From positions 18,006 to 82,005 of the forward strand of contig JASBTQ010000047.1 in assembly GCA_030148335.1 (NCBI GenBank): DNA of 64,000 nt, given 5' to 3'. Source of the DNA: Allomuricauda sp. GTDB taxonomy: Bacteria > Bacteroidota > Bacteroidia > Flavobacteriales > Flavobacteriaceae. Shown one piece after another: positions 35,249 through 59,909 of this stretch. The notes beneath the pieces were generated by a model. It searched no databases and was not told the DNA's origin. It saw only the letters and a list, made by a program, of their open reading frames with translations. Position 1 is the stretch's first letter, and each line of letters opens with the position of its first letter. The translations under genes and the position numbers were made by a program.

Positions 35249-35258
35249 TTAATTCAAA

Positions 35259-38984: not shown

Positions 38985-39018
38985 TTGAAAATTATCTATC
39001 TGGTATACTTTATTTAAT

Positions 39019-40889: not shown

Positions 40890-40947
40890 GTAATATTCTT
40901 TGTAATTTTTTACCCTCAAAATACTCTTATCAACACGACACTATCCT

Positions 40948-41568
40948 ATGAAAAAAATAAAAATCTACGGTGCAGGTGGGCATTCCAAAGTAATCATGGA
41001 CATAGCGGAGAGCCTTGGTCACACCATTACCAAAGTATACGACGATTTTCCCGACCAGACGAGTTTAAATGATGGACTAGAGATACAAGAGCTTTCCGTC
41101 GACAAGGAAACCTTTTTTTCCGACAGCGAGCCCATGATAGTTGCCATCGGGGACAACCATGTACGGGCGAAACTGGCCAATGAATTGAACTCCTGTTTTG
41201 AAACTCTTGTGCATCCCACTGCTGTTATAAGTCGCCATGCCCAATTGGGGGAGGGAACGGTGGTAAATGTTGGTGGCATCGTTCAGGCAGGAAGTACCAT
41301 AGGTCGCCATGTCATCATCAATACGGGCGCCCTGGTGGACCATGACAATACCATTGGCGACTTTGTACATATATCACCAAATGTTTCCCTCGCGGGCCAA
41401 GTCACCATAGGAGAAGGAACGCATATTGGTACAGGTGCAATCGTTATCCCAAAGATAAATGTCGGAAAATGGTGTATTGTGGGAGCAGGTGCAGTGATCA
41501 TCAGGGATGTTCCCGATTTTGCCGTTGTAGTGGGCAATCCTGGAAGGGTCATAAAATATAACAAATAA
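40948..41568 (+). CDS. PglD/NeuD-family sugar N-acetyltransferase
   Basis: YGAGGH, AIGDN, hexapeptide repeats, VDHD, VGNPG. Confidence 0.93.
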   Translation: MKKIKIYGAGGHSKVIMDIAESLGHTITKVYDDFPDQTSLNDGLEIQELSVDKETFFSDSEPMIVAIGDNHVRAKLANELNSCFETLVHPTAVISRHAQLGEGTVVNVGGIVQAGSTIGRHVIINTGALVDHDNTIGDFVHISPNVSLAGQVTIGEGTHIGTGAIVIPKINVGKWCIVGAGAVIIRDVPDFAVVVGNPGRVIKYNK

Positions 41569-41772
41569 AAGTATGTTAATATCTCAGGGAAACCTTCCAA
41601 AAATGGAAAGAACCTGAACCAAGACATTTTACGCATTATACCAATATTTTAAAGAACAATAAATAAAGGAGCCTATGATATAAAGATCTAAAACATTGTA
41701 AAACGAGAATTCGACAAATGACAATGTATTTGAGAACACTTTAAAACCATAATCACCAAACCATAACCACCT

Positions 41773-42840: not shown

Positions 42841-42851
42841 ATAGAAAAAGG

Positions 42852-43886
42852 ATGTTAGAAGTGATCACCCATAAAAATGATTGGGACCGGATAGTGAAAC
42901 GTTTCGGTGAAATTGACTTTTACCATTCCTTTGACTATCATAAGGCCAATGTAAAGGAGGATGAAACGCCTGTGTTGCTTTTCTATACTTCCAATGGGGT
43001 TTCCATCGCATTTCCTTTGGTGGTTCGCCCCATCAATGACAGTGGCTATTTTGATGTAACATCTGTATATGGTTATGTTGGTCCTTTGGTAACAAAAATA
43101 GATGGGTGGAAGGATACGCTATCCGAATGGCATCAACAGTTGGTTATATTTTTTGCAAAGAACAGAATAGTCAGTGCTTTTTCCAGTATGAACCCATTCA
43201 TCAGCGAACAGAACAGTCTTCTTTTAGGACTCGGCGAGGTTGAGAACTTGGGACGAATTGTGTATCTCGATCTGGAAAAGTCCGGTAATCATATGAAAGA
43301 GTACTCTCAAACGACCATGAGGTACGTCAAACGGAACCAGCAACTTTTTGATATCCTGGAGGGAAAAACGGAAAAGGATGCCCTACTGTTCATGGATATC
43401 TATTACCAAACTATGGATAGGATCCATGCAGATCCCAACTACTACTTCAAGCTCCCCTATTTCATGGGTTTGGTCCAGAATGATGAGTTTGACGCCCGGT
43501 TTGTATTTGCCGTTTCCAAGGATTCGAAGGAAGTTGCTGCCGGGGCCTTCATTGTGTCTACCCAAAACCGTATCATACAATATCACCTATCAGGCACCTC
43601 AGACAAATATCGTCACCTCTCCCCCATCCGCACAGTGATCGACCATGTCAGGAAATTGGGTGTTTCAAATGGCCATCGCTATTTTAATCTTGGTGGCGGT
43701 GTTGGCAGCAAAAATGACTCGCTATATGAGTTCAAGACCTCTTTCTCCCAAAACAGTGTCCCTTTTCAGGTATGGAAGTTTATTGCCGATTGGGAAGCTT
43801 ATGACAGGCTTTGCCAAAAGTATCCCTCCGAACCCAATTCGGGAAAACCCAATTATTTTCCAAAATACCGGAGCAACTTAAAATAA
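42852..43886 (+). CDS. FemAB-like GNAT protein B (peptidoglycan-bridge glycyltransferase-like family)
   Basis: SVYGYVGP, YHLSG, NLGGG...LYEFK, YFPKYR. Confidence 0.85.
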   Translation: MLEVITHKNDWDRIVKRFGEIDFYHSFDYHKANVKEDETPVLLFYTSNGVSIAFPLVVRPINDSGYFDVTSVYGYVGPLVTKIDGWKDTLSEWHQQLVIFFAKNRIVSAFSSMNPFISEQNSLLLGLGEVENLGRIVYLDLEKSGNHMKEYSQTTMRYVKRNQQLFDILEGKTEKDALLFMDIYYQTMDRIHADPNYYFKLPYFMGLVQNDEFDARFVFAVSKDSKEVAAGAFIVSTQNRIIQYHLSGTSDKYRHLSPIRTVIDHVRKLGVSNGHRYFNLGGGVGSKNDSLYEFKTSFSQNSVPFQVWKFIADWEAYDRLCQKYPSEPNSGKPNYFPKYRSNLK

Positions 43887-43945
43887 GGTGCTGAAAGTAT
43901 TCAATTTTGACAGGAATCGGCCACCCCTGGACCATTCGTAACAAT

Positions 43946-44605
43946 TCACTCGACAACTTGGTCCTGGTTACTGGAAAAAACACCTTCGGACATTTGTTTT
44001 TTGCGATAGCTGTCAAAATGTTCGATAAAGGCGTCGGGATCTTCTGCAACATCTTTTCCTGTGACTGCCTTTTTGAAAGTTTCCACCAAAATCTTAATAT
44101 CCATGCCCAGGCTCACATTCCTGACATATTCCACATCCAGACCGAACCTTTCCTCCCACGTGAGATAGTTCCTTCCTGAAATCTGGGCAAGGCCTGTTAT
44201 ACCCGGCCGTACAGTATGCCTCAGTTTTTCGACCTCATTGTAGTAGGGAAGATAGAAGGTCCGCAATGGCCTTGGACCTACCAAGCTCATATCACCTTTA
44301 AGTATATTGAAGAGTTGGGGAATCTCGTCCAAAGAGGTTTTCCTTATCAACCTCCCCATTTTGGTGATCCGTTGATTGTCCGGAAGCAGATTGCCTGTTT
44401 TGTCCCTTTTATCGTTCATGGTCTTGAACTTAAGGATAGTGAAGATCTTTTCATCCTTTCCAGGCCTATCCTGCCTAAAAAAAGGATTGCCCTGAAAGTC
44501 GATCCATAAAACAATGGTTATGACAATGAAAAAAGGGGAAAGTAGTATAATCCCAAAAAGAGATATCAGAAAGTCAAGAAACCTTTTTAAACCATTCTTA
44601 TACAC
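43946..44605 (-). CDS. Initiating phosphoglycosyl transferase (PglC-like) 2
   Basis: KFKTM, SLDEIPQ, GDMSLVGPRP, PGITGLAQ. The GTG start at 44605 avoids overlap; ATG 44647 is the alternative. Confidence 0.92.
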   Translation of the reverse strand: MYKNGLKRFLDFLISLFGIILLSPFFIVITIVLWIDFQGNPFFRQDRPGKDEKIFTILKFKTMNDKRDKTGNLLPDNQRITKMGRLIRKTSLDEIPQLFNILKGDMSLVGPRPLRTFYLPYYNEVEKLRHTVRPGITGLAQISGRNYLTWEERFGLDVEYVRNVSLGMDIKILVETFKKAVTGKDVAEDPDAFIEHFDSYRKKQMSEGVFSSNQDQVVE

Positions 44606-44615
44606 ATCAACTTGT

Positions 44616-45275
44616 TTAATGTTTCTGTTGCTTTTGCCAATTCCCATCCTCCATCATCTTCATTGTATCAATTATAATATCCAGCCCTTTAAGGGAGAAT
44701 TTCGGGTACAAGGTTTCAAACGTATCCGTTTGTTCGATTCGGATGGGTTCCTGACACAGGATGACGCCCCTGTCAAACTTGTCATCTATGATATGGGTCG
44801 TTATTCCAGATACCTTCACGCCATAGTCCAATGCATCCTGAATTGCAGTTTTTGTTGCCAAAAAACTAGGGAACAGTGACGGATGGATGTTAACAATCCT
44901 ATTGGGAAAAGCTTGTAGCATGTCATCAAGGACCAAATGTTGGAATCCCAATAGGAACACGTGTGTGATTTTTTCCTGTTCCAATATCCTCAGGATTTCC
45001 ATCTGATGTTTTTTTTTGTTTCCAAACTTGTCCTTTGGCAAAAAAACTGTCTTTATCCCATACTTTTCCGCTTCAATGGCCGCACCACATTCTTCTTGTT
45101 CATAAATCAATACGCCTATTTTGTCGGTAAGATCTCTTTCTGCATACCAATTGATGGCATCCTTCGCATTTTTGCCCCAAAAACTGCACAAAAAGGCCCA
45201 TTTGATTGTTTGCCCGCTCATGATTCCCTTGGATTGATCGTATTGTTCTTTGTAGGCTCCCACATATTTTTTCAA
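44616..45275 (-). CDS. N10-formyl-THF-dependent formyltransferase (PurN fold, probably a sugar N-formyltransferase)
   Basis: IVNIHPSL and THIIDDKFDRG catalytic motifs; lacks the PurN SGxGSN loop. Confidence 0.8.
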   Translation of the reverse strand: MKKYVGAYKEQYDQSKGIMSGQTIKWAFLCSFWGKNAKDAINWYAERDLTDKIGVLIYEQEECGAAIEAEKYGIKTVFLPKDKFGNKKKHQMEILRILEQEKITHVFLLGFQHLVLDDMLQAFPNRIVNIHPSLFPSFLATKTAIQDALDYGVKVSGITTHIIDDKFDRGVILCQEPIRIEQTDTFETLYPKFSLKGLDIIIDTMKMMEDGNWQKQQKH

Positions 45276-45521
45276 TTCATTATCAATAACTTAACTTAGA
45301 TTTCATCCCTGTTTTGCCCAAAGACAGAAGCGTTTTCCTTCCCTGGCTCATCAGCCAACTAATATAAGCGTAAGTACCGATACCAAACAAGTCATTGGGA
45401 GTAACCAATAACAGCTGGGCAATAGTTATGGTTGTTTATCGATCAAAGCTTCAACATCAGCCTTTTTGTGGTTTTTGACTTCCTTTTTAGCATTATTTTT
45501 ATCCAGTATCAAGGACAACCT

Positions 45522-46967
45522 ATGCTTTTCAACTCTTTTGAATTTCTGATTTTCTTCCCAGTTGTATTAATCTTGTACTATGTGTTGCCACATCGAAGCC
45601 GTTGGTTGTTTTTGGTACTGGCCAGTTATTATTTTTATGCTGTCGGGGAGCCATACCTGATTGGTTTGCTCATGTTTTCCACGTTGACAGATTATTATTG
45701 TGGGCTGAAAATCGGAACCACTGAAAACCAGAGAACCAAAAGAATCTTTTTATGGACCAGTATCATAATCAATATAGGGATTCTGGTCAGCTTTAAATAT
45801 TTGTTTTTTCTATGGGACTCGTTCAATGGATTGTTGGAACAGTTCGGAATCCAAGTAGAGGCAGCTGAAAAGATACAAGGGTATCGAATTGACCAGGTCC
45901 TTTTACCCATCGGAATCAGTTTCTACACTTTCCAAACCATGAGCTATACCATAGACGTGTACAGGGGAAATGTAAATCCTGAGAAACACTTTGGCCGATT
46001 TGCCCTCTTCGTGGCCTTTTTTCCACAATTGGTGGCCGGTCCTATCGAACGGGCCTCCCGAATGTTGCCACAATTCAAAAAAATTGTACTCCCTGATGCC
46101 GATCAAATAAAGAGAGGCCTCATTTTTATGGCTTGGGGTTTTTTCATGAAGATTGTCGTGGCAGACCGATTGGGCATGTATGTTGATGTTGCCTATGCCG
46201 ATCCCGAGGGAAACAGGGGCCTGCCCTTGATCCTGGCCGCTTTCTTTTTCGTCTTTCAGATCTATTTTGATTTTGCAGCCTATACCTATATTGCCATTGG
46301 TGCTGCAAAGTGCATGGGAATCACCTTGATCAACAACTTTAACAGGCCGCTGTTCTCCCAGAGCATTTCCCAGTTTTGGCAACGTTGGCACATCTCACTG
46401 ACCCATTGGATCCGGGACTATTTATATCGTCCCCTTACAAGAAATGCAAATATCGACCGGGCATTGGCCGTTTTGATCGTCTTTTCTGTCATGGGACTAT
46501 GGCACGGGGCCAACTGGACCTTTGTCGTGTGGGGAATTCTCAATGCCGTGTTCTTGATTGTAGAAATGATGACCTACACCCTTCGAAAACGAATATTTGA
46601 ATTTTTGGGCGCGGGTCCAAGGATAAGGGGACTTTTGGGTTGGGGGGCTGCATTTTCATTTATGCTTCTCTCCCTTATATTCTTTAGGGCACCAAGTATT
46701 GGGGATGCCGTGACATATTTCCAGAATCTCTTTATTTGGCCCAACCTTCACTTTAACATCCTCAACAATTATTTTGAGCTGATTTTGAGCTTTGCTTTGA
46801 TTTTAGGGGTACAGTTGGTGCATTATTACAAAGGAAACAATAAAATTTATGAATTGGTCGAGGCGAAATCTGTATGGGCCAGATGGTCCATTTATTTTAT
46901 CTATCTGATACTTATATTGCTGTTCGGGGTGAACAGCCAACAGAGTTTCATCTATTTTCAATTTTGA
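45522..46967 (+). CDS. MBOAT acyltransferase 1 (AlgI/DltB/PatA-like)
   Basis: MLFNS start, PIGISFYTFQ, FPQLVAGPIER, FWQRWHISL, GLWHGA, C-terminal FIYFQF. Confidence 0.95.
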   Translation: MLFNSFEFLIFFPVVLILYYVLPHRSRWLFLVLASYYFYAVGEPYLIGLLMFSTLTDYYCGLKIGTTENQRTKRIFLWTSIIINIGILVSFKYLFFLWDSFNGLLEQFGIQVEAAEKIQGYRIDQVLLPIGISFYTFQTMSYTIDVYRGNVNPEKHFGRFALFVAFFPQLVAGPIERASRMLPQFKKIVLPDADQIKRGLIFMAWGFFMKIVVADRLGMYVDVAYADPEGNRGLPLILAAFFFVFQIYFDFAAYTYIAIGAAKCMGITLINNFNRPLFSQSISQFWQRWHISLTHWIRDYLYRPLTRNANIDRALAVLIVFSVMGLWHGANWTFVVWGILNAVFLIVEMMTYTLRKRIFEFLGAGPRIRGLLGWGAAFSFMLLSLIFFRAPSIGDAVTYFQNLFIWPNLHFNILNNYFELILSFALILGVQLVHYYKGNNKIYELVEAKSVWARWSIYFIYLILILLFGVNSQQSFIYFQF

Positions 46968-46974: not shown

Positions 46975-47931
46975 ATGAAGAAATTAATTATAAAGACAAT
47001 TTTTTTCTGTTCGATTCTGGGGGGAGGCTATTTTCTACTGGTTGATCAACTCTCCAAAGGCTATGTGGACATGACTTACCAGAAATTCACCCAGGAAGCC
47101 GGCAGCCTCATCATTGGCCTTTCCAGGGCAGATCTTGGCATTGATCCCGAAACCATTGAGGACCATATACCAGAAGAAACCTTTAACGGACCTTTGATAA
47201 ACTTTGCCTCCAACCAATACAATTTTGGGGAAACTTATTTCAAGGCCATAAAGAGGAAGCTCAATACAGCACCTGGAAAACGAATTTTCATAATCACGGT
47301 TTCTCCAGGAAGTTTTACGGCACCAATGGGTTTCGGGTACAAGGGAATCGCTGCAATGGATTCAAAAACGGGAATTGGAAAAACCAAGGATTTCACATCC
47401 AACCCCAATTACAGTTATATAATGAACTGTTACGGAAACGGGCTATACACTGCCCTGATTGAAAATCGAGATTGGGATAACCTCACCGCCCACAACAATG
47501 GTTGGAACGAAATATCCCTAGAATCCAAGTCCACACCCATAGGCAAGACGCTCATGGGAGATTGGAAAAGACAGAATCTTGCCTACTATCATCGGCAATT
47601 GTCCCAGTTAGAAATAAAGCCCTACCGCAAGGAATGGTTTGTGAAAACCATTGAGTTTCTCAAAAGTGAGGGGTCAGTCTATTTGGTAAGAATGCCAGTT
47701 GACCGGGAAATTCTTAATTTCGAAAACCAAAGTTGGAAGGAATTCAACAGCTATATCCGGGGTGTCGCATTGGAGAAAAATATCCCCTATTTTGATTATT
47801 CCCAGGAAGGAGGAAAGTTTGCAACCTATGATGGCTCTCACCTATACTCCGAAACGGCCAAGGAATTCAGCACTCAATTGGCAAAGGATATCCTAAGAAA
47901 TGGCTGGACCACGGAGGCGTATGAACCCTGA
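46975..47931 (+). CDS. Membrane-anchored SGNH-like acyl relay protein 1 (DltD-like)
   Basis: N-terminal TM, IIGLSRA (block I Ser), DGSHL (DxxH); 7 bp after the MBOAT gene. Confidence 0.75.
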   Translation: MKKLIIKTIFFCSILGGGYFLLVDQLSKGYVDMTYQKFTQEAGSLIIGLSRADLGIDPETIEDHIPEETFNGPLINFASNQYNFGETYFKAIKRKLNTAPGKRIFIITVSPGSFTAPMGFGYKGIAAMDSKTGIGKTKDFTSNPNYSYIMNCYGNGLYTALIENRDWDNLTAHNNGWNEISLESKSTPIGKTLMGDWKRQNLAYYHRQLSQLEIKPYRKEWFVKTIEFLKSEGSVYLVRMPVDREILNFENQSWKEFNSYIRGVALEKNIPYFDYSQEGGKFATYDGSHLYSETAKEFSTQLAKDILRNGWTTEAYEP

Positions 47932-47953: not shown

Positions 47954-48958
47954 ATGAAGTTCAGTTCCTCATATCAGAACAAAACTTTCAAGTCCATTTG
48001 GTTGAAACATTTCCACCCAGAAGGGGAATTATTGGCCCAGGAATTTATTACAGGTGTTGAGTTTTGCAAATCCAGGACCGCTCTCCTATGGATGAATGTC
48101 GGGGGTACAAATACCAAGGGGGTGTCCTATGGGGTCAATCCAAAGGGGGACCTTGGGGCCCTGAAGAACAAAGTGCTTCTTATCCATGATGTTCCCGATC
48201 TGCAAGCACCCGAGGCCAGGTCTGTTCATGGATTCCGCTTTAAAAAGGTTCCACAATACCCAGGCTTTTTTTGCGATTTTGGAGCTTGTACCACCCTAGA
48301 AGACTACATGGCCCAACAAATCAGTAAACGCACCAGTTCAAAACTCAGAAACTACAGGAACAGATTGCATAGGGACCATAAGATAGCTTACAGAATGGTA
48401 TGGGGCGATATTTCCTTTGAGGAATATGAAACCTTGTTCGAGCAATTTCACTCCCTATTGCTCAAGAGGTTTGAAGACAAACAAATTGTGAACAATAATC
48501 TCGACCCCTCTGAATGGCAATTTTATAAGGCAGTGACCTTTCCCATGCTGAAGGACAAAGAGGCCGGCATGTTTGTCACCTATATTGAGGACCGTCCCGT
48601 AGCGATCACACTTTTAAATTTTTCGGAGAATCGGGCCTTTGATGTCATAAGGGTCTTTGATATAGCCTTTTCCAAGTACCGTATCGGGACCCTCAGCCTA
48701 ATGGAACAGATTGAATGGTGTATTGGGAACAATTTCAAGATCCTGGATTTCTCAAAAGGATTTTACGAGTATAAAAAACAATGGTGCAATAGCTCATATA
48801 TGTTTGAATATCACATTTGGTACGATTCCAGAAATTTGAAGAGCAACCTCCTGGCCAGGACATTGGCCCTTAAGTTCATTCTCAAGTTCTGGGCGCGAAA
48901 ATATAACCTCCAGGAAACCGTTCATAAAATACGATATAGGTTTAGACCAAAATCTTGA
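47954..48958 (+). CDS. GNAT array paralogue 1 (Acetyltransf_6/FemAB-like, short form)
   Basis: DVP, QYPG, SKRTSSKLRNYRNRL, KRFEDK, DFSKGFYEYKKQW. Confidence 0.85.
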   Translation: MKFSSSYQNKTFKSIWLKHFHPEGELLAQEFITGVEFCKSRTALLWMNVGGTNTKGVSYGVNPKGDLGALKNKVLLIHDVPDLQAPEARSVHGFRFKKVPQYPGFFCDFGACTTLEDYMAQQISKRTSSKLRNYRNRLHRDHKIAYRMVWGDISFEEYETLFEQFHSLLLKRFEDKQIVNNNLDPSEWQFYKAVTFPMLKDKEAGMFVTYIEDRPVAITLLNFSENRAFDVIRVFDIAFSKYRIGTLSLMEQIEWCIGNNFKILDFSKGFYEYKKQWCNSSYMFEYHIWYDSRNLKSNLLARTLALKFILKFWARKYNLQETVHKIRYRFRPKS

Positions 48959-48974
48959 AATACTAAAATATACG

Positions 48975-49952
48975 ATGAGCAAAGGTTCCAACATGCAGAT
49001 CCATGAATGCATCTTTCAGTTCTATCTGGAACATCGCGTCCATGGTATGTGTACCGGAAAGGTCCACAACAGGCTTTTGGGCGGCTCTCTAAACTCCATT
49101 ACCCTGGACCGTGCAAACATCTACAAGGGCCTTAATCTGGTCAAGGATATACCGGATTACCTCTATTTTGAGACCAAATTGCCCGTTGGAATAAAATCCC
49201 TGCGTGTTCCCCAATACCATGGCTCCTTGGTAAACTTGGAAGCATATACTGGAATTGAGGATTTTCTTCGAGGACAATTGAGCAGGCGTAACATAAAGAA
49301 TTTCAAGGCAAAAAAGAAAAAACTGGAAAGCTTGGGGGCGGTGGAGTACAAAGTATTGATGGGGCCTTTACAGGAAAGAGTCTATAAAGAGGCTTTTGAA
49401 ACCTTCCATGAACTTTTAAAAAGAAGGTTCGACAAAAAGAAGATCCTGAACCGGTATCTCATGGACTGGCAGGGGCTGTACCTTCAGGCATATCCAAGAT
49501 TGGTGGAGGGAAAGGCCCTATTGTTCCTTATCCAAGTGGACGGAAAACCCATCGGGATGGCCCTGGATTATATTCTTGAATCCAGTGTCTTCAGCCATAT
49601 ACAGACCTTTGACCAGGAGTATTCCAAATATAATGTGGGGGACCTCATGCTGTATTTTCAATTGGAATGGTGCCTGGACCACGAAAAATCGATTCTCGAC
49701 CTTTCCAAGGGCGAGAGCGCATATAAGGAAAAATGGTGCAACCATAGGTACCGTCTATACCATGATCTGATCTATCCCAAGAATTCCCTTTCACTGACCC
49801 TATGTGCACGTGCCTTGGCCCTGAAGTATAACACGATTCAAAAACTAAGGGACCTTGGGGTATTGGGAAATATAATCAACGTTGACCAATGGCTCTATAA
49901 AAGGCATAGGAAAACATTCAACGATCCAATTCAGTCCAATAGCCCCCTTTAG
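48975..49952 (+). CDS. GNAT array paralogue 2 (short form)
   Basis: DIPDY, QYHG, RRFDKK, DLSKGESAYKEKW. Confidence 0.85.
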   Translation: MSKGSNMQIHECIFQFYLEHRVHGMCTGKVHNRLLGGSLNSITLDRANIYKGLNLVKDIPDYLYFETKLPVGIKSLRVPQYHGSLVNLEAYTGIEDFLRGQLSRRNIKNFKAKKKKLESLGAVEYKVLMGPLQERVYKEAFETFHELLKRRFDKKKILNRYLMDWQGLYLQAYPRLVEGKALLFLIQVDGKPIGMALDYILESSVFSHIQTFDQEYSKYNVGDLMLYFQLEWCLDHEKSILDLSKGESAYKEKWCNHRYRLYHDLIYPKNSLSLTLCARALALKYNTIQKLRDLGVLGNIINVDQWLYKRHRKTFNDPIQSNSPL

Positions 49953-49954
49953 CC

Positions 49955-51184
49955 ATGTTCAAAGGTAAGCACAAACTTTTCAGAGCCGTGGATTTTCATG
50001 AATCCACCCTTCTACACAGAAAGGGAGCTTCACTATTTGAATCCTTGAGCAATATGTTTACCGGGGAGTGTATCCAATTTGTGGAAACGGAAAACACGGC
50101 ATCCCAAAAGAATCTGGATAAGCCCTTGCTCCTATCCAGCATGCCCGGATATATGAAGGGACAATATGTTCGTGGTGGCAGCTTGAAGGTCAAAACGATA
50201 AAAACCTTCCCCGGTTCCCTGATCAACCTAAAGGCGTACCCAAATTATAGATCCTATCTGGATATGCGTTTCACCGGCAAGCAACGAGCCCAGTTCAGAA
50301 GCTCCAAAGCCCTGCTCCACCATTGCTTTGAAATTGTGCACATGGTGTATTTCGGGGCCATTGACAAGCCAGAATACGACCGGCTTTTTGAGACACTGAA
50401 AGAAATGCATTTGGTCCGTTTGGCGCATAAGGGCTGTACGGATGACACCGCTGGGATGTGGGCCCTGTACCAAGCAAGTGCCTACCAACAAATTTTGGAC
50501 CAAGAGGCCTGCCTTTCGGTAGTCTATCACGGGGATAGACCTATTGCCATAAGCCTAAATTTTATCCTAGGGAAGGTTGTGCACGGTTTTAACCGAAGCT
50601 TTGACATGGCCTATTCCAAATTCGGCCTGGGAACCATCGAGTTGTTGAACATGGTGGAATGGTGTTTTGGGCAGGGATTCGAAATCCTTGATTTCATGAA
50701 AGGGGAATACAATTATAAAAACAAATTCACTGACACTCCCTATTCTTTTACCCTTCAATTGGTTTTTGGAAACAATATTTGGTGGCCAAAACTAAAAGGA
50801 TTGTCCTTATATTATAGCCTTTCAGTATTTTATACCCTCTATAATGTTATACGGTCCGTAGGACTTCTTAAATTATGGCACACTCTGTCCAAACCAAGGA
50901 ACATAAAACCCCAATTGAATGGCCAGGTTCATCTACGGGAATTGGAACATACCGGACAGGGCCCATTGGAGCATGATAGCTTTATGGTGGATTGGTCTGA
51001 AATTGCCTCCCCCAATCTTAGAAAGGCCATTTGTGATTTTTGCCATAAAAACAAAAAGCCCTTAAAAAGTATAAACCTGTTCTCCTTTTCGGAAACACCT
51101 TCCACCATTATATTGATGGAGGGATCTCAAATGCTGTTGATCATGGGAAACAAGGACCAAAATTTCCGAAAATCCAAATCATGA
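49955..51184 (+). CDS. GNAT array paralogue 3 (long form)
   Basis: SMPGY, GSLINL, RLAHK, DFMKGEYNYKNKF, plus an extra C-terminal domain. Confidence 0.85.
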   Translation: MFKGKHKLFRAVDFHESTLLHRKGASLFESLSNMFTGECIQFVETENTASQKNLDKPLLLSSMPGYMKGQYVRGGSLKVKTIKTFPGSLINLKAYPNYRSYLDMRFTGKQRAQFRSSKALLHHCFEIVHMVYFGAIDKPEYDRLFETLKEMHLVRLAHKGCTDDTAGMWALYQASAYQQILDQEACLSVVYHGDRPIAISLNFILGKVVHGFNRSFDMAYSKFGLGTIELLNMVEWCFGQGFEILDFMKGEYNYKNKFTDTPYSFTLQLVFGNNIWWPKLKGLSLYYSLSVFYTLYNVIRSVGLLKLWHTLSKPRNIKPQLNGQVHLRELEHTGQGPLEHDSFMVDWSEIASPNLRKAICDFCHKNKKPLKSINLFSFSETPSTIILMEGSQMLLIMGNKDQNFRKSKS

Positions 51185-52365
51185 GAAAATATTCATTTTT
51201 TGAGGAATTATTGATATCGGGTACCATCAAGAATCATTGCAGATCTATCGATATTGGACCGCATTTGCGAACGATTCCCATTTCTTCGGGTTCTTCCACC
51301 ATAGCCGAGGCAGGGGTGGCGTGTTCCTATTGGGACATACCCGATTATATGAAGGCTACCTTTCACGGGGACAACGGGAAGGTATTTGAAAGATCAGTTG
51401 CCCTTTATGAAGGCTCCTACATCGAATTGGGCAAATACCAGGGCTTTGACCATTTTATTAGGCAAAAGTTAAGCTCCAACCGAAGAGCCAAAATAAGGGC
51501 CGCCAAGCGGAACCTAGAGCATATATTTCCAATCGATTATGCCTATTATTATGGTGTGGAACTATCGGACAGCACATATTTCGGGCTTATGAAAGCCTTA
51601 AAGGAAATGATTACCAAGCGGTTTGAGGAAAAGCAGATGAAACATACCGCCTTGGAAGACTGGGACAATTTCATTAAGTGGGGCAGAATTTTGATAGCGG
51701 AAAAACGAGCAGTAATGTTCGTAATCTACAGTGATGGCCAGCCCATACATATCGCCTTTAATTATGTTTGGGAAAAACTGGTTTTTGCATTTGTCAGGGG
51801 ATTCGATGTTAATTACTCGAGATTTCACCTGGGGTTTATCGATATGTTAATCCAGATTGAATGGAGCTTCAACAACCAATTCCAAATCCATGACTTTTTA
51901 AGGGGAAACTTGGACTATAAGATAATGTTCGCGGATACCACCTATTTATACCGGGCCCATTTTATTATACCTTCTGTAAAACGTAATCCTCTGGCCCTCC
52001 TGCCATGGATAGGGTGCTCCCTCAAATTTGATGTCTATTATAACCTCAAGAGAAAATTTGGGGTTCTTTACTATGGCATGCCCTTTTTACCAAAAAGACG
52101 GAAGAAAAAAGTTTCAGTTTATCAATTGGATGCACCCAGTCAGGAGGAATCCATCCAATTGGCAAAAAATCATATGCCTAAAGTAAATTTGGAAACGGAA
52201 CCCCATGAATATCTTAAAAGAGCGGCCTATCATTTTCTGTACAATACTAAGACACCCATAAAAGAATTGGAGGTCTATGGGATTCCTGGGCAACAGGACA
52301 TCTATTTTTTCAAAGGGAACGGGCAGGTCAAAAAAGTACAATTTTCAAACTCGAAAAAAAGCTAA
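51181..52365 (+). CDS. GNAT array paralogue 4 (long form)
   Basis: DIPDY, YEGSYIEL, KRFEEK, DFLRGNLDYKIMF. Confidence 0.85.
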   Translation: MRKYSFFEELLISGTIKNHCRSIDIGPHLRTIPISSGSSTIAEAGVACSYWDIPDYMKATFHGDNGKVFERSVALYEGSYIELGKYQGFDHFIRQKLSSNRRAKIRAAKRNLEHIFPIDYAYYYGVELSDSTYFGLMKALKEMITKRFEEKQMKHTALEDWDNFIKWGRILIAEKRAVMFVIYSDGQPIHIAFNYVWEKLVFAFVRGFDVNYSRFHLGFIDMLIQIEWSFNNQFQIHDFLRGNLDYKIMFADTTYLYRAHFIIPSVKRNPLALLPWIGCSLKFDVYYNLKRKFGVLYYGMPFLPKRRKKKVSVYQLDAPSQEESIQLAKNHMPKVNLETEPHEYLKRAAYHFLYNTKTPIKELEVYGIPGQQDIYFFKGNGQVKKVQFSNSKKS

Positions 52366-53561
52366 TGGAATCCATGGAGTCCAAAACCATCGTTTTTTTA
52401 AAGCAGTTGGCTTCCATGGGGAGCTTTCCGGCCTGTATTTCTAAAATCAGGGATACCAGAACCGGAGAAGTCCTGTTCGAACAATCGGTCGAAAAACGTC
52501 CAATGGATACTCGAGATCATATGATCTTGAAGGATGTCCCAAGCTACCTAGAAATCGAATGGGAGGAGACAAAAATAAAAATCAAGACCCAAAGCCTTGC
52601 CACCCAAAAGACCTATGTGGTAGATCTCGATCATTACAGGAATTCGGATGCCTATCTTCAAAAACACTTTGGGCCCAAGAGCCGTTCCGCATTGAGACGG
52701 TACAAAAAACGGTTGGAACAGTGCTTTAGAGTCGAATATTGGGTCCATTATGGAGCCATGGACAAAATCGGATATAATGCCCTCTTCGAGCAGGTCCGAG
52801 ACCTGATGGAACGGAGGTTCGAACAAAAAAAGGAACGGAATTACGAACTCCAGCACTTGGAAGAAATAAAGAATGATGTATATCCAAGACTCCTTGAAAA
52901 ACAAGCCTCCATTTTTGTGATCACCGCCAACGGCAGACCGATCAGTATCCGAATCAACCTGATGAGGGGCACCCTAGCCTATTATATCCTAAGTGCCTAT
53001 GATCCTGATTACGACATCTTTCGCCTAGGGAAACTGGACATGTGGCAAAACATCCATTGGTTTTTGGAAAACGGCTATAAAAAATATGACCTCCTAAAAG
53101 GGTATGCCTATATCAAGGAGCAATGGGCAGATTCCATTTATGACAATAATCTGATCTTGGTCAACCGGGACGCTTCCCTTAAGGGCAGGATGGGACTCTT
53201 GCTTTGTTATAGGAGAAAAAAGGCATTACTGGTACTTGTACGGGCCGCCAAATCCCTTGGCCTAGACCGGTCCATCAGAAAAATGAAGAGACAATCGGCT
53301 CCCAAATGGGAGATGGACCCACCCGAAATTCGGCCAATCTCTTGTACCAATCAACAAGCGGATTTATTTGATGCCCTACCTGATTGGCATTCACAGGAAA
53401 AGAAATTGAACCGACCCTTATTCACCTTAGCCTATAAGCACAGTTTTCCTGTGAAGAAAATCAAGGTATCCATAAAAAAGGATGACCCAAGGCAGTTTTT
53501 GATCGAAATCGGGGACGCCTGCTATTTGTTCATTTTTGGTAAAGACAAATCAATCCCATGA
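52365..53561 (+). CDS. GNAT array paralogue 5 (long form)
   Basis: DVPSY, KSRSALRRYKKRL, RRFEQK, DLLKGYAYIKEQW. Confidence 0.85.
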   Translation: MESMESKTIVFLKQLASMGSFPACISKIRDTRTGEVLFEQSVEKRPMDTRDHMILKDVPSYLEIEWEETKIKIKTQSLATQKTYVVDLDHYRNSDAYLQKHFGPKSRSALRRYKKRLEQCFRVEYWVHYGAMDKIGYNALFEQVRDLMERRFEQKKERNYELQHLEEIKNDVYPRLLEKQASIFVITANGRPISIRINLMRGTLAYYILSAYDPDYDIFRLGKLDMWQNIHWFLENGYKKYDLLKGYAYIKEQWADSIYDNNLILVNRDASLKGRMGLLLCYRRKKALLVLVRAAKSLGLDRSIRKMKRQSAPKWEMDPPEIRPISCTNQQADLFDALPDWHSQEKKLNRPLFTLAYKHSFPVKKIKVSIKKDDPRQFLIEIGDACYLFIFGKDKSIP

Positions 53562-54505
53562 AATTACGCTTCCTTCTGGATATTGTTCTCTCCCATGGCC
53601 ATGACCGTCTCGGGCCCCTCTCCGCTTGTGCGGAGATCGATGACCCCAAGACCTTCAAAATGGCCCTCAGGGACGGCGAATCCATGAACTCGCCTTTTTT
53701 TATTTGTGATCTGCCTTCTTATCAACAGTTGGTACTGCAAGGAGAATTGAAAACACTCAAAAAATTGGACTCCCCTCTGTACCAAGGATTTTTGCTAGAC
53801 CTTACCCCCTATGAAAATTTGGATGGGTATTTAAAATCCCATTTTCCCACCACAACGCGGATGTTCAGAAGACACGGAAAAAGACTTCGGGAGGAAGTGG
53901 GTTCCACAACCAAGATTTATTATGGGAGCAGCATGGATGAAGCGGAACTGACCCTGTTGTTTGACCGTCTTAAAACATTCCTTACAAACCGATTTGAGCA
54001 AAAGGAATCCGAGAACTACGAACTTCCATTGTTGCCCCTATATAAAAAAATGCTCAGGACCCTTGTCCCCAAGGGAGAAGCTGTGATATTTGCCCGGTTC
54101 CATGGCAAAAACCCCATAGGGATCGGAATCGGTTTTGTAAATGCAAACATCCTTTATCTGTTCAATATTGGCTTTGATGTCCAATATGGCCAATACGGAT
54201 TGGGCAACCAATTACTCTTGGATGTTCTGGGATGGTGCTTTGAAAAAAGGATTTCCATGGTGGATATGGGAAGAGGCGATTTTTTCCATAAACGAAAATG
54301 GGTAAACGGTTCCTATATCTATAGGGAAATTACCTTTTTCAAGGCCAAAAATGTCTTGGAAATGTCCAAGGCCTTTACCATCTGGACCATCAATACGATT
54401 CGCTATCACACCATCGCTTTCCTGAAAAAAATGGGGGGACAACAAATGGCCAGAAAATTTTTCCTATGGAAATACAGGCTGTGGAACCACCATAAACAGG
54501 ATTGA
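53558..54505 (+). CDS. GNAT array paralogue 6 (short form)
   Basis: DLPSY, YQGFLLDL, NRFEQK, DMGRGDFFHKRKW. Confidence 0.85.
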   Translation: MKLRFLLDIVLSHGHDRLGPLSACAEIDDPKTFKMALRDGESMNSPFFICDLPSYQQLVLQGELKTLKKLDSPLYQGFLLDLTPYENLDGYLKSHFPTTTRMFRRHGKRLREEVGSTTKIYYGSSMDEAELTLLFDRLKTFLTNRFEQKESENYELPLLPLYKKMLRTLVPKGEAVIFARFHGKNPIGIGIGFVNANILYLFNIGFDVQYGQYGLGNQLLLDVLGWCFEKRISMVDMGRGDFFHKRKWVNGSYIYREITFFKAKNVLEMSKAFTIWTINTIRYHTIAFLKKMGGQQMARKFFLWKYRLWNHHKQD

Positions 54506-54559
54506 TTTCACCGACAATAATAATGAAACAGAAATTCAAACCATGAAATCGTTTTTGGG

Positions 54560-55747
54560 ATGCTACATAAAATAAACATATTCCAAGCCCTTTATGAACG
54601 GGAGGGCCTGCCCAATGGACTTCCGGAACCAATGGTCAATGGTAGGCACTTTGATACTGGTCAAAACCCTAGCGTTCCCCAAAGCAATATGGACAGTTAC
54701 TCCTTACGTTTGATGCCTTATTATGTGCAATTTGCAAACATCCCCAACCAATATTGCCTAAAAAAAGTCCCTCAATTCAACTGGGGGCATTCCATAGACC
54801 TGAAGGGGTTCCCATCCGTTGATGACTACATGGAGTCCCAATTCAAGTCCAAGACAAGAAGTATCATCAAAAGATATATCAAGAGATTGGAAATATGTTT
54901 TCCCATATCCTACAGATACTATTATGGAGAAATGGAACATGGGGAATATACCAGAATATTTGAATCCTTGGAGCAAATGATTCTCAACCGTTTCGAACAA
55001 AGGGAAGAAACCCATAAGGAAATGTGGAGATGGAAGGCCTTAAAAGATTCCACATATGACCTGATACTTTCAAAGAAAGCATCGTTCTTCGTCATTTTTG
55101 ATGGAAATACCCCCATTGAAATATCGTTGAACTATCATCTGGAAGGAATTTTGTTCAGTTCCATTTCATCGTTCGACACAGACTACACCAAATTTGGACT
55201 TGGGCATGTCGAAATCTACAAACAATTGGAATGGTGTCTGCAAAATGGTTGTTCCATTTTTGAAATGGGGGTGGGCGGCATGGACTATAAAAGGAGGTGG
55301 AGCAACCGTATCTATCAGTTCGACCATTGCATCCTGTTTCCCAAAAAAACCTCGTTTTCCAAGTTCGTAAGTACCATGGAATATTGGCGCATACAAGTAA
55401 AGGAATATCTCAAATCAAAAAAAATCAATGAACTGAAGGATACGTTGTTGCGCAAATTGGATCTTAAAAGAAAGCATAATGAAGCGGGGGAGATGCCATT
55501 CTCCCATTCCCTTTTGGGACATCCTCCCAAAAATATGGAACTGTATCCACTCTCGTTTTCCGAATCCTTGCCCAATGGCCTAAAAAAAGCGCTGTACGAT
55601 TTACTGTATTTACAAGAAGTGAGCCGCGAGAAAATCGAACTTTTCAAGGGTGGTGGCCATTATTATGCCAAATTGGAATCCAAGTGGTTTTTGCTTCAAA
55701 GGGAAAATGTTGGTGCGTCTGCACATTCTGTCCCATTTGAACCTTAG
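54560..55747 (+). CDS. GNAT array paralogue 7 (long form)
   Basis: LMPYY, KTRSIIKRYIKRL, NRFEQR, EMGVGGMDYKRRW. Confidence 0.85.
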   Translation: MLHKINIFQALYEREGLPNGLPEPMVNGRHFDTGQNPSVPQSNMDSYSLRLMPYYVQFANIPNQYCLKKVPQFNWGHSIDLKGFPSVDDYMESQFKSKTRSIIKRYIKRLEICFPISYRYYYGEMEHGEYTRIFESLEQMILNRFEQREETHKEMWRWKALKDSTYDLILSKKASFFVIFDGNTPIEISLNYHLEGILFSSISSFDTDYTKFGLGHVEIYKQLEWCLQNGCSIFEMGVGGMDYKRRWSNRIYQFDHCILFPKKTSFSKFVSTMEYWRIQVKEYLKSKKINELKDTLLRKLDLKRKHNEAGEMPFSHSLLGHPPKNMELYPLSFSESLPNGLKKALYDLLYLQEVSREKIELFKGGGHYYAKLESKWFLLQRENVGASAHSVPFEP

Positions 55748-55926: not shown

Positions 55927-57033
55927 ATGGACGGTACTGATTTAAAAGTGGTCATCCTTACCAAGAAAGAAATTAGCGACTACTTACAGAAACCTGCCCT
56001 TGAGCGTGAGTATAGTCTTCCTTTTTCTGCGAACAAAGCCCATTGGTTAATCGAAAAACCGGGAATGGACGATGCCGACTTTTGTGCCATCATGGCAACA
56101 ACGGGCAAGGAAATCCTAAGTTTCACCCATTTGGTTCCCGACCTATTGTCCAATCGGGAAGGCTATGGGCAAGAGGAGAGAAAAATATACTGGATGCCCC
56201 AATGGTGGGCCTCGGAAACGGCCAAGAGCACTGTGGTCTCAACCTATGTCTTCAGTGAGTCCCTAAAAGCCACGTCCAATAAGATATTGGTAAAGGCATA
56301 TGAACAGAATGCAGAGGCCTTTTATACAAAACAGCCTTTCTCTATGGTTCAGACCAATCAGAGGCATGTCGTATTCATTGGTCTGGCCAGTGACGTTTTG
56401 GCGCAGAGGCTGCCGGTTCTAAGTAAAGTCAAATTCTTTACAAAAGGACTGGAAAAAACGTCCGTAAAAATATATGCCTGGTTGAACCGATCACGAATCA
56501 ATACGTTGGGTCATGACCTAAAAATAAAATACTTCCACCGACTGGATGTCGATTCTTGGAACTTCATTAAACCTTTTGTTGAAAATGACATTGTCCAAAA
56601 GAGCAGGGAATACATCAATTGGCAAATTGACCATAAACAATACTTATCGACACCTTTGGATAAGAAAAAATCCAACATAGGGTTGGTAAGGGGATATGGG
56701 TCCAAGATAGGTATGGTCAATTATATGGTGACCAGGGACAATGCCCATATCGGATTTGTTTCTTTCCATTATATAGGGCGTACCGCATATATGAAATATG
56801 TTCTTGCCCACCCGGATGAAATGGCAAGTGTATGTGCGACCCTCTACGAACATCTGAACAAGTTGGGGGTCATTTACTTTTTTACGGACAACGCCTCATT
56901 GGCCAAACATTTTTTGGACAACTTTTCAACAGTTTACCACTACACACAGACCAAAAAATCCATGGCGCACAATTCCATTTATGATATGGTGGGCAACGCT
57001 GTCGTAACAGAGCAAGATGGACATTTTATATAG
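55927..57033 (+). CDS. Hypothetical protein, possible tandem-GNAT fold (not a paralogue of the array)
   Basis: 368 aa soluble ORF with IYWMPQWW and KSREYINW motifs; 5 bp before the adenylation gene. Confidence 0.6.
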   Translation: MDGTDLKVVILTKKEISDYLQKPALEREYSLPFSANKAHWLIEKPGMDDADFCAIMATTGKEILSFTHLVPDLLSNREGYGQEERKIYWMPQWWASETAKSTVVSTYVFSESLKATSNKILVKAYEQNAEAFYTKQPFSMVQTNQRHVVFIGLASDVLAQRLPVLSKVKFFTKGLEKTSVKIYAWLNRSRINTLGHDLKIKYFHRLDVDSWNFIKPFVENDIVQKSREYINWQIDHKQYLSTPLDKKKSNIGLVRGYGSKIGMVNYMVTRDNAHIGFVSFHYIGRTAYMKYVLAHPDEMASVCATLYEHLNKLGVIYFFTDNASLAKHFLDNFSTVYHYTQTKKSMAHNSIYDMVGNAVVTEQDGHFI

Positions 57034-57038
57034 AATAT

Positions 57039-58550
57039 ATGAAAATCCTCCAGACACTACAAGAATCCATGAAAGAACATTCCTTAAGGAATGCATTCTT
57101 GATCAATGGCACTTATTATACCTATGGCCAATTGGGTTCCAAGATTTCAGGTATCAGGAGACTTGTGCAGGACCAGGTCCCCTCTTCTGAAAAATTCATA
57201 GGAGTGGTCACCAATGATGATCTGGAAACCTATGCAAGTATGATTGCCCTGTGGTTTGAAGGTAAGGCCTATGTCCCCATCAACCCCATTTACCCAAAAA
57301 CACGCAACAAAGAGATTCTGGAACAAACGGAAAGTACTTATATCTTGGATTCGTCCGACACCAAATATCTTGATGATGGGTTCCATGTTCTTTCCGCTGG
57401 AAACCTATCAACACAAGGAATGGATCTGTGTCCCAAAACTGTTCATCCTGAAAGTTTTGCCTATGTGATCTTCACTTCTGGGAGTACGGGTGTTCCTAAA
57501 GGTGCCCCGATTACATTCAAAAATTTAGATAGCTTTGCATCCGCCATAGACGAGAACCTGTCTTTCTCCCTTTACCCGTCCGACCGTTGCCTACAAATGT
57601 TCGAGCTGACCTTCGACATGTCGGTGGTCTCCTTTCTCGCCCCCTTATTGAAAGGTGCCTGTGTGTATACCCTGTCCAAAAAGGGCATCAAATATTTTGA
57701 GATCGTGAAATTGTTGTCGGAATATCAATTGACGGTTTTGATCATGGTCCCTTCCATCATCCACTACCTACGCCCTTATTTCAAGGAAATCCATTGCCCG
57801 AGCGTCAGGTATTCATGTTTTGCCGGTGGGAAACTCTTCGGGGAAATTGCAAAGGAATGGAACAAGTGCATTCCCAATGCACAGATCATCAACTATTATG
57901 GCCCCACCGAAACGACCATATATTGTGGTGGGTACCTCTTCAACAAGGAAGGGGGCAACAAGCATGAAAATGACGTACTGTCCATCGGAAAGCCATTTCC
58001 CAATACATCTTATATGATCATTGACGAAAATGGTGAAGAACTTGGTGTGGGAAAAACCGGGGAGCTTTGCATAGCCGGGGAGCAATTATTTCCGGGATAT
58101 ATCAAAAACGAGGAGAAGAACAAACAGGTCTTTTTTACTGTGGAACACGGGGGTCGTTCACATAGGTTCTACAAAACAGGAGATCTGTGCTATAAAGATG
58201 CCGACGGGGATTATATGTATGTGGGCCGGGCTGATTTTCAAGTGAAAATAAGAGGATTCCGAGTGGAATTAGGAGAAATAGAATACCATGTAAAAACAAA
58301 ATTGGTGGGCATGGATGTGGTGGTCATCGACGTTCCTGATGGTATGGGCAATCTGGAATTGGGCTTGGCCGTTTGCAGCAACAAAATTGACCTGGAACCT
58401 GTCATTTCCCACTTAAAGGAAGTTTTGCCACCCTATATGATCCCTACCCAATTTCTGTTCCTTGACCAATTTCCCCATAGCGTAAATGATAAAGTGGACA
58501 TGAAAGAACTCAGGGCACGGTTCACAGACTTAAAAACCAAACACATTTGA
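57039..58550 (+). CDS. Stand-alone amino-acid adenylation enzyme (DltA-like carrier-protein ligase)
   Basis: FTSGSTGVPKG, FDMSV, NYYGPTE, GELCIAG, YKTGD, GRADFQVKIRGFRVELGEIE, LPPYMIP, NDK. Confidence 0.93.
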   Translation: MKILQTLQESMKEHSLRNAFLINGTYYTYGQLGSKISGIRRLVQDQVPSSEKFIGVVTNDDLETYASMIALWFEGKAYVPINPIYPKTRNKEILEQTESTYILDSSDTKYLDDGFHVLSAGNLSTQGMDLCPKTVHPESFAYVIFTSGSTGVPKGAPITFKNLDSFASAIDENLSFSLYPSDRCLQMFELTFDMSVVSFLAPLLKGACVYTLSKKGIKYFEIVKLLSEYQLTVLIMVPSIIHYLRPYFKEIHCPSVRYSCFAGGKLFGEIAKEWNKCIPNAQIINYYGPTETTIYCGGYLFNKEGGNKHENDVLSIGKPFPNTSYMIIDENGEELGVGKTGELCIAGEQLFPGYIKNEEKNKQVFFTVEHGGRSHRFYKTGDLCYKDADGDYMYVGRADFQVKIRGFRVELGEIEYHVKTKLVGMDVVVIDVPDGMGNLELGLAVCSNKIDLEPVISHLKEVLPPYMIPTQFLFLDQFPHSVNDKVDMKELRARFTDLKTKHI

Positions 58551-58551
58551 T

Positions 58552-58857
58552 ATGGAAACTACTGAAATAAAAGAGTCCTTGAAAGCTATATTCACGGACA
58601 CGTTAGGACACAATTCATTCGAACTCGAAGATGATACCACTGCAAAGGATGTGGATGGATGGGATTCTGTGACGCACATGATGCTCATCAACGAAATCGA
58701 AAAGAAATACAATATAAAGTTTTCTTTGATGGATCTAATGAACTTGGAAAACATCGGGAGCTTGATCAAGGCTATCAAGAGTAAAGTGGGGTCTTCCCTT
58801 ATCTATGTTGCACTGTGCGAGCTATTGGAACTTGAATCTTTGGTCCTTCTAGTATAG
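58552..58857 (+). CDS. Acyl/aminoacyl carrier protein (DltC-like) with C-terminal extension
   Basis: GWDSV phosphopantetheine site (Ser39); 1 bp after the ligase gene. Confidence 0.9.
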   Translation: METTEIKESLKAIFTDTLGHNSFELEDDTTAKDVDGWDSVTHMMLINEIEKKYNIKFSLMDLMNLENIGSLIKAIKSKVGSSLIYVALCELLELESLVLLV

Positions 58858-58932: not shown

Positions 58933-59904
58933 TTATGGGGCGGTGTCCAACAAATTGGCTTTCAGGTCCTTTACAATGATCTCTGCCACCAAATCCCTCC
59001 CATGGTTGTTCCAATGCCTATCGTAGACCAAAGTGGTCTTTCTTTTTGACGCGTTCAGATCAGCACCAAAATCAATGTATTCAAACCCGTTTGTGTCCAA
59101 GTAGTCCAAAAAGAGTTGTGGTGTCGTGCTCTGATCCATCAAAAGGACGGTTTTTTGCTTATTGTAACCATAAAGTGCTACCAGGTTCTTGAAATTTTCC
59201 AGATATATTTCGTGCGCTCTTCCCACCTCTTTTTCATCCTTTTCCGGTTGTTCCTTTGCATTCCCGCCTTTTGCCACGGCCATGATGTCCCTGACTAGGT
59301 TCCTAGCTGGATTTAAAGCACCTATCTCGGAAAAGTAAACCAACAATTTACTTTTCTTGAGCAATTTATTGACAGGTGATTCCAGGTTCAGTCTGGATTC
59401 TTCAATAAAATATTCTCCACGCGTGAGGTCGTTTGAAAACATCAGCTTGATATAGATCCTATCGATTAATCCAAAATCCTCTTCATATGCCTTGATCAAA
59501 TGGAGCTGATCGGCCATATCATAGCCCGCATAACCATATTCAAATACCTTGACCCTGTCGTTGAGTCTTTGTTCAATTTTTCTACCTATTGATATTTTAT
59601 AAGGTTGATGAAACCCTTCAATGAATGAATCCCCCACCAATGCCACCTCAATCCCTTGCTCTGTAGGTATGAACTCTTGGTACGAATTGAATCCAGAGCT
59701 GTTGATGTTGTACCTGATGAAATTTTGGTTCCTGTTGCCTGTCACAGAATAGCCTTCTTGGTTAGGAACCCATTTTTCCACGCTTTTCCCATCAACAAAA
59801 CGGGTGGGTTTGTCCTCGCCCAGGTAAAATATCCTCACCAAGATCTCCAAAGAAATCAGTATGAGGACTGAATAAATTCCTAATTGTGTTATTAATTTTT
59901 TCAT
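58933..59904 (-). CDS. Membrane-anchored SGNH acyl relay protein 2 (AlgJ/AlgX/PatB-like)
   Basis: N-terminal TM, LVGDSF and DRHWN (DxH). Confidence 0.8.
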   Translation of the reverse strand: MKKLITQLGIYSVLILISLEILVRIFYLGEDKPTRFVDGKSVEKWVPNQEGYSVTGNRNQNFIRYNINSSGFNSYQEFIPTEQGIEVALVGDSFIEGFHQPYKISIGRKIEQRLNDRVKVFEYGYAGYDMADQLHLIKAYEEDFGLIDRIYIKLMFSNDLTRGEYFIEESRLNLESPVNKLLKKSKLLVYFSEIGALNPARNLVRDIMAVAKGGNAKEQPEKDEKEVGRAHEIYLENFKNLVALYGYNKQKTVLLMDQSTTPQLFLDYLDTNGFEYIDFGADLNASKRKTTLVYDRHWNNHGRDLVAEIIVKDLKANLLDTAP

Positions 59905-59909
59905 CTTTT

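Follow-up and report, generated by a model that had tools for sequence, protein, structure and literature searches.

An ordered array of seven Fem-like PF13480 transferase genes beside a capsule locus of Allomuricauda

A seven-gene array and its family

The stretch of DNA analysed here, 64,000 nucleotides of contig JASBTQ010000047.1 from an Allomuricauda sp. assembly (GCA_030148335.1) and referred to as the window, carries at positions 47954-55747 an array of seven consecutive forward-strand open reading frames, g1 to g7 (Table 1), all of which are intact and none frameshifted in the open reading frame list. A preliminary description of this DNA had pointed to seven tandem, intact FemAB-like GNAT paralogues, several translationally coupled (ATGA at 51181 and 53558, TAATG at 52365), and this anatomy stands: from g1 to g7 the genes are spaced by 16, 2, -4 (ATGA), -1 (TAATG), -4 (ATGA) and 54 bp, and every helix and active-site motif quoted there was located in g1-g7. 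The shared skeleton described at the same time holds overall, but RF-x-x-K is RL in g3 and RFxxR in g7, and for D-x3-G-x4-K g7 carries E in place of D; g1 has DVPDL. Pairwise protein identity is 22-33%, with E-values of 1e-17 to 1e-45 within the seven-protein set, and no similarity between the copies was detected at the DNA level.

Table 1. Features of the array and its surroundings in the window
Feature	Position	Strand	Description
g1	47954..48958	+	Founder-type PF13480 double-GNAT transferase; N-terminal W..HF motif; without C-terminal domain; DFSKGFYEYK
g2	48975..49952	+	Short paralogue without C-terminal domain; DLSKGESAYK
g3	49955..51184	+	g3/g4 clade, with C-terminal domain; DFMKGEYNYK
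g4	51181..52365	+	g3/g4 clade, second member; DFLRGNLDYK
g5	52365..53561	+	Paralogue; DLLKGYAYIK
g6	53558..54505	+	C-terminal domain lost in window lineage; DMGRGDFFHK
g7	54560..55747	+	EMGVGGMDYK; modelled as FemX-like tandem GNAT with basic helix pair and C-terminal domain
C-terminal alpha/beta domain of g7	55481..55714	+	78 residues; also in g3, g4, g5
MBOATa	45432..46967	+	Membrane acyltransferase; ends FIYFQF; subfamily directly before arrays of window type
SGNHa	46975..47931	+	Putative partner of SGNH type; hydrophobic segment at the N-terminus; motifs GLSR and DGSH
Optional cassette	55927..58857	+	PF00583-like GNAT (55927-57033), DltA-like adenylation enzyme (57039-58550), carrier protein (58552-58857)
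Second MBOAT-SGNH pair	58933..61364	-	MBOATb (59910-61364), SGNHb (58933-59904); convergent on array
Two FemAB-like genes	41773..43886	+	Inside capsule cluster; adjoin PglD-like acetyltransferase and initiating sugar transferases
Wzx/Wzy capsule locus	13026..45275		wzc, wza, capD/PglF-like, DegT aminotransferase, UDP-sugar dehydrogenases, wzx, EpsG-type wzy, glycosyltransferases, formyltransferase; candidate acceptor source

As a single contig of run X3 covers 47948-54444 in array order and the remainder is spanned by contigs of run X4 that overlap or abut, the two runs reproducing the same order, an assembly artefact is rejected. A scan of the 84%-complete assembly with PF13480 retrieved only g1-g7 and the two FemAB-like genes, and tblastn found no further paralogue in it. 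Parts of the array are matched, at 90-99% identity, by contigs of two RNA libraries that come from a single study, and library X19 has depth in 12 of 13 bins across it, a weak hint at expression given that DNA in the library is possible; some bins outside the array are uncovered by the RNA-library contigs, gaps that carry no evidential weight. A promoter/terminator scan remained at chance level (35 versus 38 expected; 18 versus 19).

All seven proteins exceed the Pfam gathering cut-off for PF13480 (Acetyltransf_6, BcsL/CelD-like GNAT) with 30-60 bits versus 22, and their Atlas neighbours are PF13480 proteins throughout. PF02388 (FemAB) is matched by none of the seven at E<=0.01, but instead by the genes at 41773 and 42852. 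This hidden Markov model search with both families, suggested in the preliminary description, divides the label FemAB-like: fold, basic helix and conserved lysine are Fem-like, but on sequence grounds the array is a PF13480 subfamily separate from PF02388 FemAB, and membership in the peptidoglycan FemAB family is rejected. The selidamide acyltransferases, considered as family members and as a counter-example (PMC8784127, PMC13647313), are discarded, as their published family is PF00583.

The 78-residue C-terminal domain is modelled with confidence and present in approximately three quarters of the subfamily members, in most clades. Analysed alone, it showed no Pfam family common to more than 1 of 141 members, and its fold search ended at a best Z of 4.1 with no Foldseek match at E<=0.001, which does not imply a new fold.

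Predicted fold and the amino acid donor

The full-length structure model, built for g7 only, has a predicted local distance difference test score (pLDDT) of 90 and a predicted template modelling score (pTM) of 0.89, and its top six VIA matches, with 205-229 residues aligned, are all aminoacyl-tRNA transferases. Best among them is FemX (6snr; Z 16.8, root mean square deviation 4.1, 229 residues, both GNAT domains), followed by the amino-sugar transferase Sbb17 (9wqx; Z 15.8, 205 residues), FemXWv (4ii9; Z 15.7), FemA (Z 14.7), L-PGS (Z 14.1) and MprF (Z 13.3). GNATs that use acyl-coenzyme A (acyl-CoA) align with one domain only, over approximately 140 residues at Z<=13.0, and the Foldseek ranking agrees with the VIA result. 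Structure prediction against FemX, as proposed beforehand, has thus returned a Fem-like fold, and not one outside the Fem/GNAT type.

Via a neighbouring FemAB-like family, K244 of g7 maps to K305 of FemXWv (FemX Lys305) and R144 to R205, and the basic helix of FemX is aligned with helix 96-110 of g7. Fem-type enzymes are characterised as a class by a double GNAT, a basic helix and Lys305 (PMC12945691). Among the 191 homologues, K244 and G215 are each present in 191 and R144 in 189, the basic helix carries a net charge of +4 or more in 189 and ranks among the top tenth of 15-mers in all, and K244, R144 and the helix are retained in every clade, in agreement with the basic helix and conserved lysine first proposed. 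The loop from D/E235 to K244 is conserved inside each clade and different between clades, being identical (EMGVGGMDYK) in 16/16 members of the g7 clade. The median net charge of the proteins amounts to +13 to +23, a basic amphipathic segment with a median of +8 follows domain 2, and no membrane span was found in any of g1-g7. By modelled fold and residues, the array proteins likely work like Fem-type transferases, with aminoacyl-tRNA as predicted donor.

The pyrophosphate loop of acyl-CoA GNATs, motif A, has the pattern R/Q-x-x-G-x-G/A. A thioester donor, that is acyl-CoA or an aminoacyl or acyl carrier protein (from the adjacent DltA/DltC-like pair), could replace tRNA, and the invariant G215, located where motif A ends, the tandem acyl-CoA GNATs, which reach Z 12-13, and the adenylation enzyme and carrier, which adjoin the array in the window and several other loci, are all in its favour. 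The complete motif A, in this form, is however found in only 2/191 homologues; the cassette GNAT was absent from the search results in 5/5 array-bearing genomes, in a search run without a positive control, and a search for the adenylation enzyme, with the control G009 positive, gave no match in 4/4 array-bearing genomes of 94-99% completeness (G006, G032, G101 and G290). One of these, G006, retains all seven array genes without the cassette. Sequence identities of the cassette are uncorrelated with those of the array (Spearman 0.02, against 0.89-0.95 within the array; five loci, pairs non-independent). The cassette is optional for the array, an obligatory dependence is rejected, and a thioester donor is, altogether, unlikely. 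The cassette, which sets a DltA/DltC-like pair beside a PF00583-like GNAT in the capsule surroundings of a Gram-negative organism, is swapped independently of the array and is duplicated in one locus (L085).

Orthology by position and the special copy g1

The subfamily is present in 20/36 congeners with one to seven copies and in 77/300 Flavobacteriaceae genomes, with at most 6 matches scored per genome; among 400 genomes drawn from the phylum, 1 of the 372 outside Flavobacteriaceae matched, weakly, and 50%-identity representatives gave 476 matches at E<=1e-30. Two tandem distant relatives occur in a capsule locus outside Flavobacteriaceae (L114, G363:C50). For the gene neighbourhoods, 60 stretches were fetched and two overlaps dropped, leaving 58 loci from 57 genomes, picked for high copy number or score and not as a random sample.

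In a tree of 191 members the proteins cluster by array position. A position test was performed with the 70 proteins of 11 arrays of window type, excluding four copies that were outliers, as well as the arrays L038/L039, L045, L049, L051 and L025, which are split or irregular, and with two labels in the five-gene L052 assigned from clade knowledge; the gene-position label changes 5 times, the minimum, versus 62 times for the genome label, and each position is supported at 98-100 in the Shimodaira-Hasegawa-like approximate likelihood ratio test (SH-aLRT). With clade profiles, the order g1-g2-g3/4(-g3/4)-g5-g6-g7 was recovered in 5/9 held-out named loci, including those of Flavivirga, Jejuia and Hyunsoonleella, the other four being other array types with mixed clade assignments. 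All seven genes stand in order in G006, at 38-50% identity. The ratio of non-synonymous to synonymous substitution rates (dN/dS), obtained with a simple counting method, is 0.07-0.22 in 12/12 orthologue pairs from two genome pairs, where the first genome pair did not include g4 and the second has a dS close to saturation.

An expansion that is old and retained, as the preliminary description had proposed, is borne out by the position-specific clades and by dN/dS; positions are conserved across genera, under purifying selection and not neutral evolution. Redundant copies arising from a tandem expansion that is recent or evolves neutrally would be compatible with the varying copy number and with the fragments in other arrays, but 22-33% identity, the lack of DNA-level similarity and the cross-genus position clades contradict recent duplication, and together with the low dN/dS they refute neutrality for arrays of window type, so that this explanation can practically be dismissed. 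The array is old and under purifying selection, and its copies are non-redundant. A free diversity repertoire, likewise considered at the outset, is disfavoured because the gene order is fixed.

A second array type consists of FemAB-g1 followed by several g7-like copies, as in L042, L044, L048, L050 and L053 with five such copies and local duplications. Arrays of this type often adjoin JmjC/cupin and HTTM-domain genes.

Within the array g1 is the special copy, having the sole complete N-terminus and being of the type found alone, a status on which the preliminary description was silent, as it was on the dedicated MBOAT-SGNH pair. Of 24 single-copy loci, 23 are g1-type, and a g1-type gene is part of every multi-copy locus except L038, where it lies on the same genome's other contig. 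The N-terminal W..HF motif is found in 58/62 g1-type proteins versus 0/115 proteins of the other named clades. A FemAB-like gene immediately precedes g1 in 20/58 loci, and the database protein P0009 fuses FemAB and g1; longer fused forms (766-2185 amino acids) numbered 0 among 3514 candidates, a weak negative because P0009 itself is such a fusion. Single-copy status, W..HF motif, preceding FemAB-like gene and fusion support a priming role of g1.

The FemAB-like gene of the window at 41773 is unfused. In L021 (1632-4244) a gene of its type carries, as an N-terminal fusion, a domain for FAD/NAD(P) binding (PF13454), FemAB-like genes with similar N-termini are found in L039 (8674-11283), L042 and L053, and other FemAB fusions are with PglD in L048 and with a second FemAB-like unit in L070.

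The FemAB-g1 fusion, together with coupling at three junctions, the fixed order and the uncharacterised C-terminal domain, might also indicate that the paralogues assemble into a hetero-oligomer with catalysis confined to some of its subunits. All clades keep K244, R144 and the basic helix, though, and single members are lost or duplicated in arrays, which a fixed complex would tolerate poorly, so that a hetero-oligomer is improbable. Complex prediction for g1 and g2 gave a score of 0.00, counted neither for nor against binding.

Surface-glycan context, proposed mechanism and significance

Among the products of the capsule locus upstream are amino-sugar enzymes resembling CapD, DegT and PglD, a formyltransferase and two sugar transferases of the initiating kind. 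Across the 58 loci a glycan-synthesis gene is found in 47 and an MBOAT gene in 36, with neither in 1. As the capsule core (24447-40035; G+C content 0.35-0.39) is AT-richer than the array (0.41-0.44) and the genome (0.45), it has probably been exchanged separately from the array. Also within the capsule locus, a DCC1-like gene and two uncharacterised membrane genes (34832-36654) form a trio that recurs in L106, and a short open reading frame (30626-31051) without Pfam match, situated between a glycosyltransferase and the EpsG-type polymerase, may be spurious or represent a remnant.

Many amino-lipids of Flavobacteriaceae are still unidentified. Membrane lipids, in the form of amino-lipids or an aminoacyl-phospholipid, might be the acceptor in place of a glycan, which would be in line with the Z of 13-14 for MprF and L-PGS and with the basic amphipathic segment after the catalytic domain. 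On the other side are the frequency of glycan-synthesis genes next to the array, a patchy distribution like that of surface-glycan loci and the absence of a flippase domain, and a lipid acceptor is therefore very improbable.

The MBOATa of the window belongs to an own clade of 13 proteins, which stands directly before an array of window type in 12/12 loci that hold it. SGNHa, without a Pfam match, has an orthologue in 5/5 congeners with six or seven copies and in 0/31 with zero to four copies. All 42 MBOATs examined end in FIYFQF, and FxYxxF/FIYFQF is described as the acyl-tyrosine shuttle motif (PMC12148441). The MBOATa subfamily reads DF[SA]AYT-x-IAIG in 13/13 members and is without the Asp of DFSGYSDIA that most MBOATb proteins keep, as is the aminoacyl-carrying DltB; this loss is a hint that MBOATa may carry a non-acetyl group. 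Export of an array-built aminoacyl or peptidyl group over the MBOATa tyrosine, with SGNHa esterifying it onto the polymer, could be deduced from these associations. A MBOATa-SGNHa pair without a GNAT array beside it (L105, G089:C1), many second-type arrays without MBOATa, MBOATa and SGNHa identities that do not follow those of the array (Spearman 0.32 and 0.0), three MBOATb-type proteins also without the Asp and the lack of a carrier that is always present argue otherwise, and such an export is quite unlikely.

FemX, FemA and FemB add residues stepwise on the staphylococcal cross-bridge, and the Fem paralogues of Staphylococcus aureus act in sequence. By analogy, g1-g7 are tentatively read as non-redundant aminoacyl-tRNA transferases which form a short side chain of amino acids on a surface glycan with one enzyme per step, the most favoured single account though its chances remain somewhat below even. 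Taken separately, a glycan is quite probably the acceptor, aminoacyl-tRNA is a probable donor, and for sequential action of the paralogues the scales are evenly balanced. The substrate would be a surface-glycan precursor, linked to a nucleotide or a lipid, on which the enzymes would act on the cytoplasmic side of the membrane. A FemAB-like neighbour and/or g1 would prime by acylating an amino sugar from the CapD/DegT pathway; further residues would then be added by g2-g7, whose D..G..K loops are individual to each, and acylation of this polymer outside the membrane would fall to MBOATa and SGNHa.

Several observations weigh against this account of stepwise extension from tRNA on a glycan. With respect to fold and donor, the Z margin over acyl-CoA tandem GNATs is only about 4 at a root mean square deviation of about 4 Å; the mapping of K244 takes two steps, the second being a modest profile match (probability 47%, E 2e-4); solved structures searched by sequence with the array profiles gave no match; and the strong positive charge could serve binding of membrane or polyanion in place of tRNA. 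With respect to the acceptor, neighbouring capsule genes vary between loci as the array stays constant, so that the adjacent capsule may not be the acceptor, and no glycan structure was found for array-bearing strains. With respect to a fixed sequence of steps, copy number ranges from 1 to 8 per locus, L045 and L111/L113, from two genomes, have arrays beginning at g2 with the g1-type gene outside, g6 carries an in-frame stop in G012, a 75%-complete assembly, and in the second array type the order is less stable and lineage-specific local duplicates and fragments occur.

The same fold and residues, together with the clade-specific loops, could also mean that each paralogue tailors its own sugar position, polymer or amino acid in parallel with no peptide chain being formed, and the HfsK paralogues of Caulobacter are additive (PMC5362036). 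A single repeat unit seldom makes available as many as six or seven sites, whether amine or hydroxyl, and the rule that g1 comes first, along with an N-terminal motif lost from all the other copies, suggests different acceptor classes, so parallel tailoring is rather unlikely. Stepwise extension in its strongest form, a peptide assembly line encoded by gene order and fed by tRNA, in which six or seven Fem-like enzymes would each contribute one defined amino acid to a product on a Gram-negative surface glycan, possibly exported via a MBOAT-Tyr-SGNH shuttle, is doubtful as well, only marginally less so than parallel tailoring; if true, the peptide would be rewritten from one strain to another as the array gains or loses members.

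The closest precedents are FemX/FemA/FemB and the HfsK paralogues of Caulobacter, and what surprises is the ordered array of several enzymes. HfsK presumably belongs to PF13480. With FemX, FemA and FemB (PF02388; PDB 4II9, 6SNR, 1LRZ) the array shares tandem GNAT, basic helix and catalytic-site lysine, but it lacks a PF02388 match, is about 10% identical, has a shorter D..G..K loop, an extra C-terminal domain and, in g7, a reduced N-terminal domain, and stands with six to seven ordered copies in a Gram-negative capsule-locus rather than a cell-wall context. Orf11/Sbb17/Sba18 of streptothricin-type antibiotic synthesis (PDB 9WQX), the second-best fold match to g7 (Z 15.8), include with Orf11 an enzyme that transfers Gly from Gly-tRNA onto an amino sugar; they differ in belonging to Streptomyces small-molecule pathways and in being 8% identical, and the accessible text describes no ordered array (PMC12945691). 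HfsK is a double-GNAT protein with FemX as closest structure, the orthologues of which cluster with exopolysaccharide genes; it and the paralogues CC2278 and CC1244 are approximately 30% identical, membrane association depends on the C-terminus, and HfsK and CC2278 modify the holdfast without cross-complementing, the donor being unknown (PMC5362036). In Agrobacterium, the BcsL-like UppA/UppQ are required for the unipolar polysaccharide (bioRxiv 10.1101/2021.04.22.440995). The HfsK set, likened to the array by published descriptions and not by sequence, has two or three dispersed copies as opposed to an ordered operon. PatAB, AlgIJ and DltBD with DltAC share the FxYxxF shuttle with both flanking MBOATs, and a DltA/DltC-like cassette is adjacent here, too; the cassette of the array is optional, however, and a pair tied to a Fem-like array is not described in the accessible text (PMC12148441). 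A literature search, the coverage of which leaves out most subscription journals, found no description of the ordered array.

PF13480/HfsK-type GNATs shape bacterial surface polysaccharides, with donor and product unknown in the published work on them as far as its accessible text extends. Donor and product could be settled with the natural series that the array offers, in which copies number one to seven and named isolates hold orthologues specific to each position. If the paralogues act sequentially, Fem chemistry would reach beyond the bridges of the cell wall to a peptide on a Gram-negative glycan that is longer and programmable, would provide a source of tRNA-dependent ligases with distinct specificities and would have a bearing on how the abundant aquatic Flavobacteriaceae adhere, on their phage receptors and on the turnover of polysaccharides.

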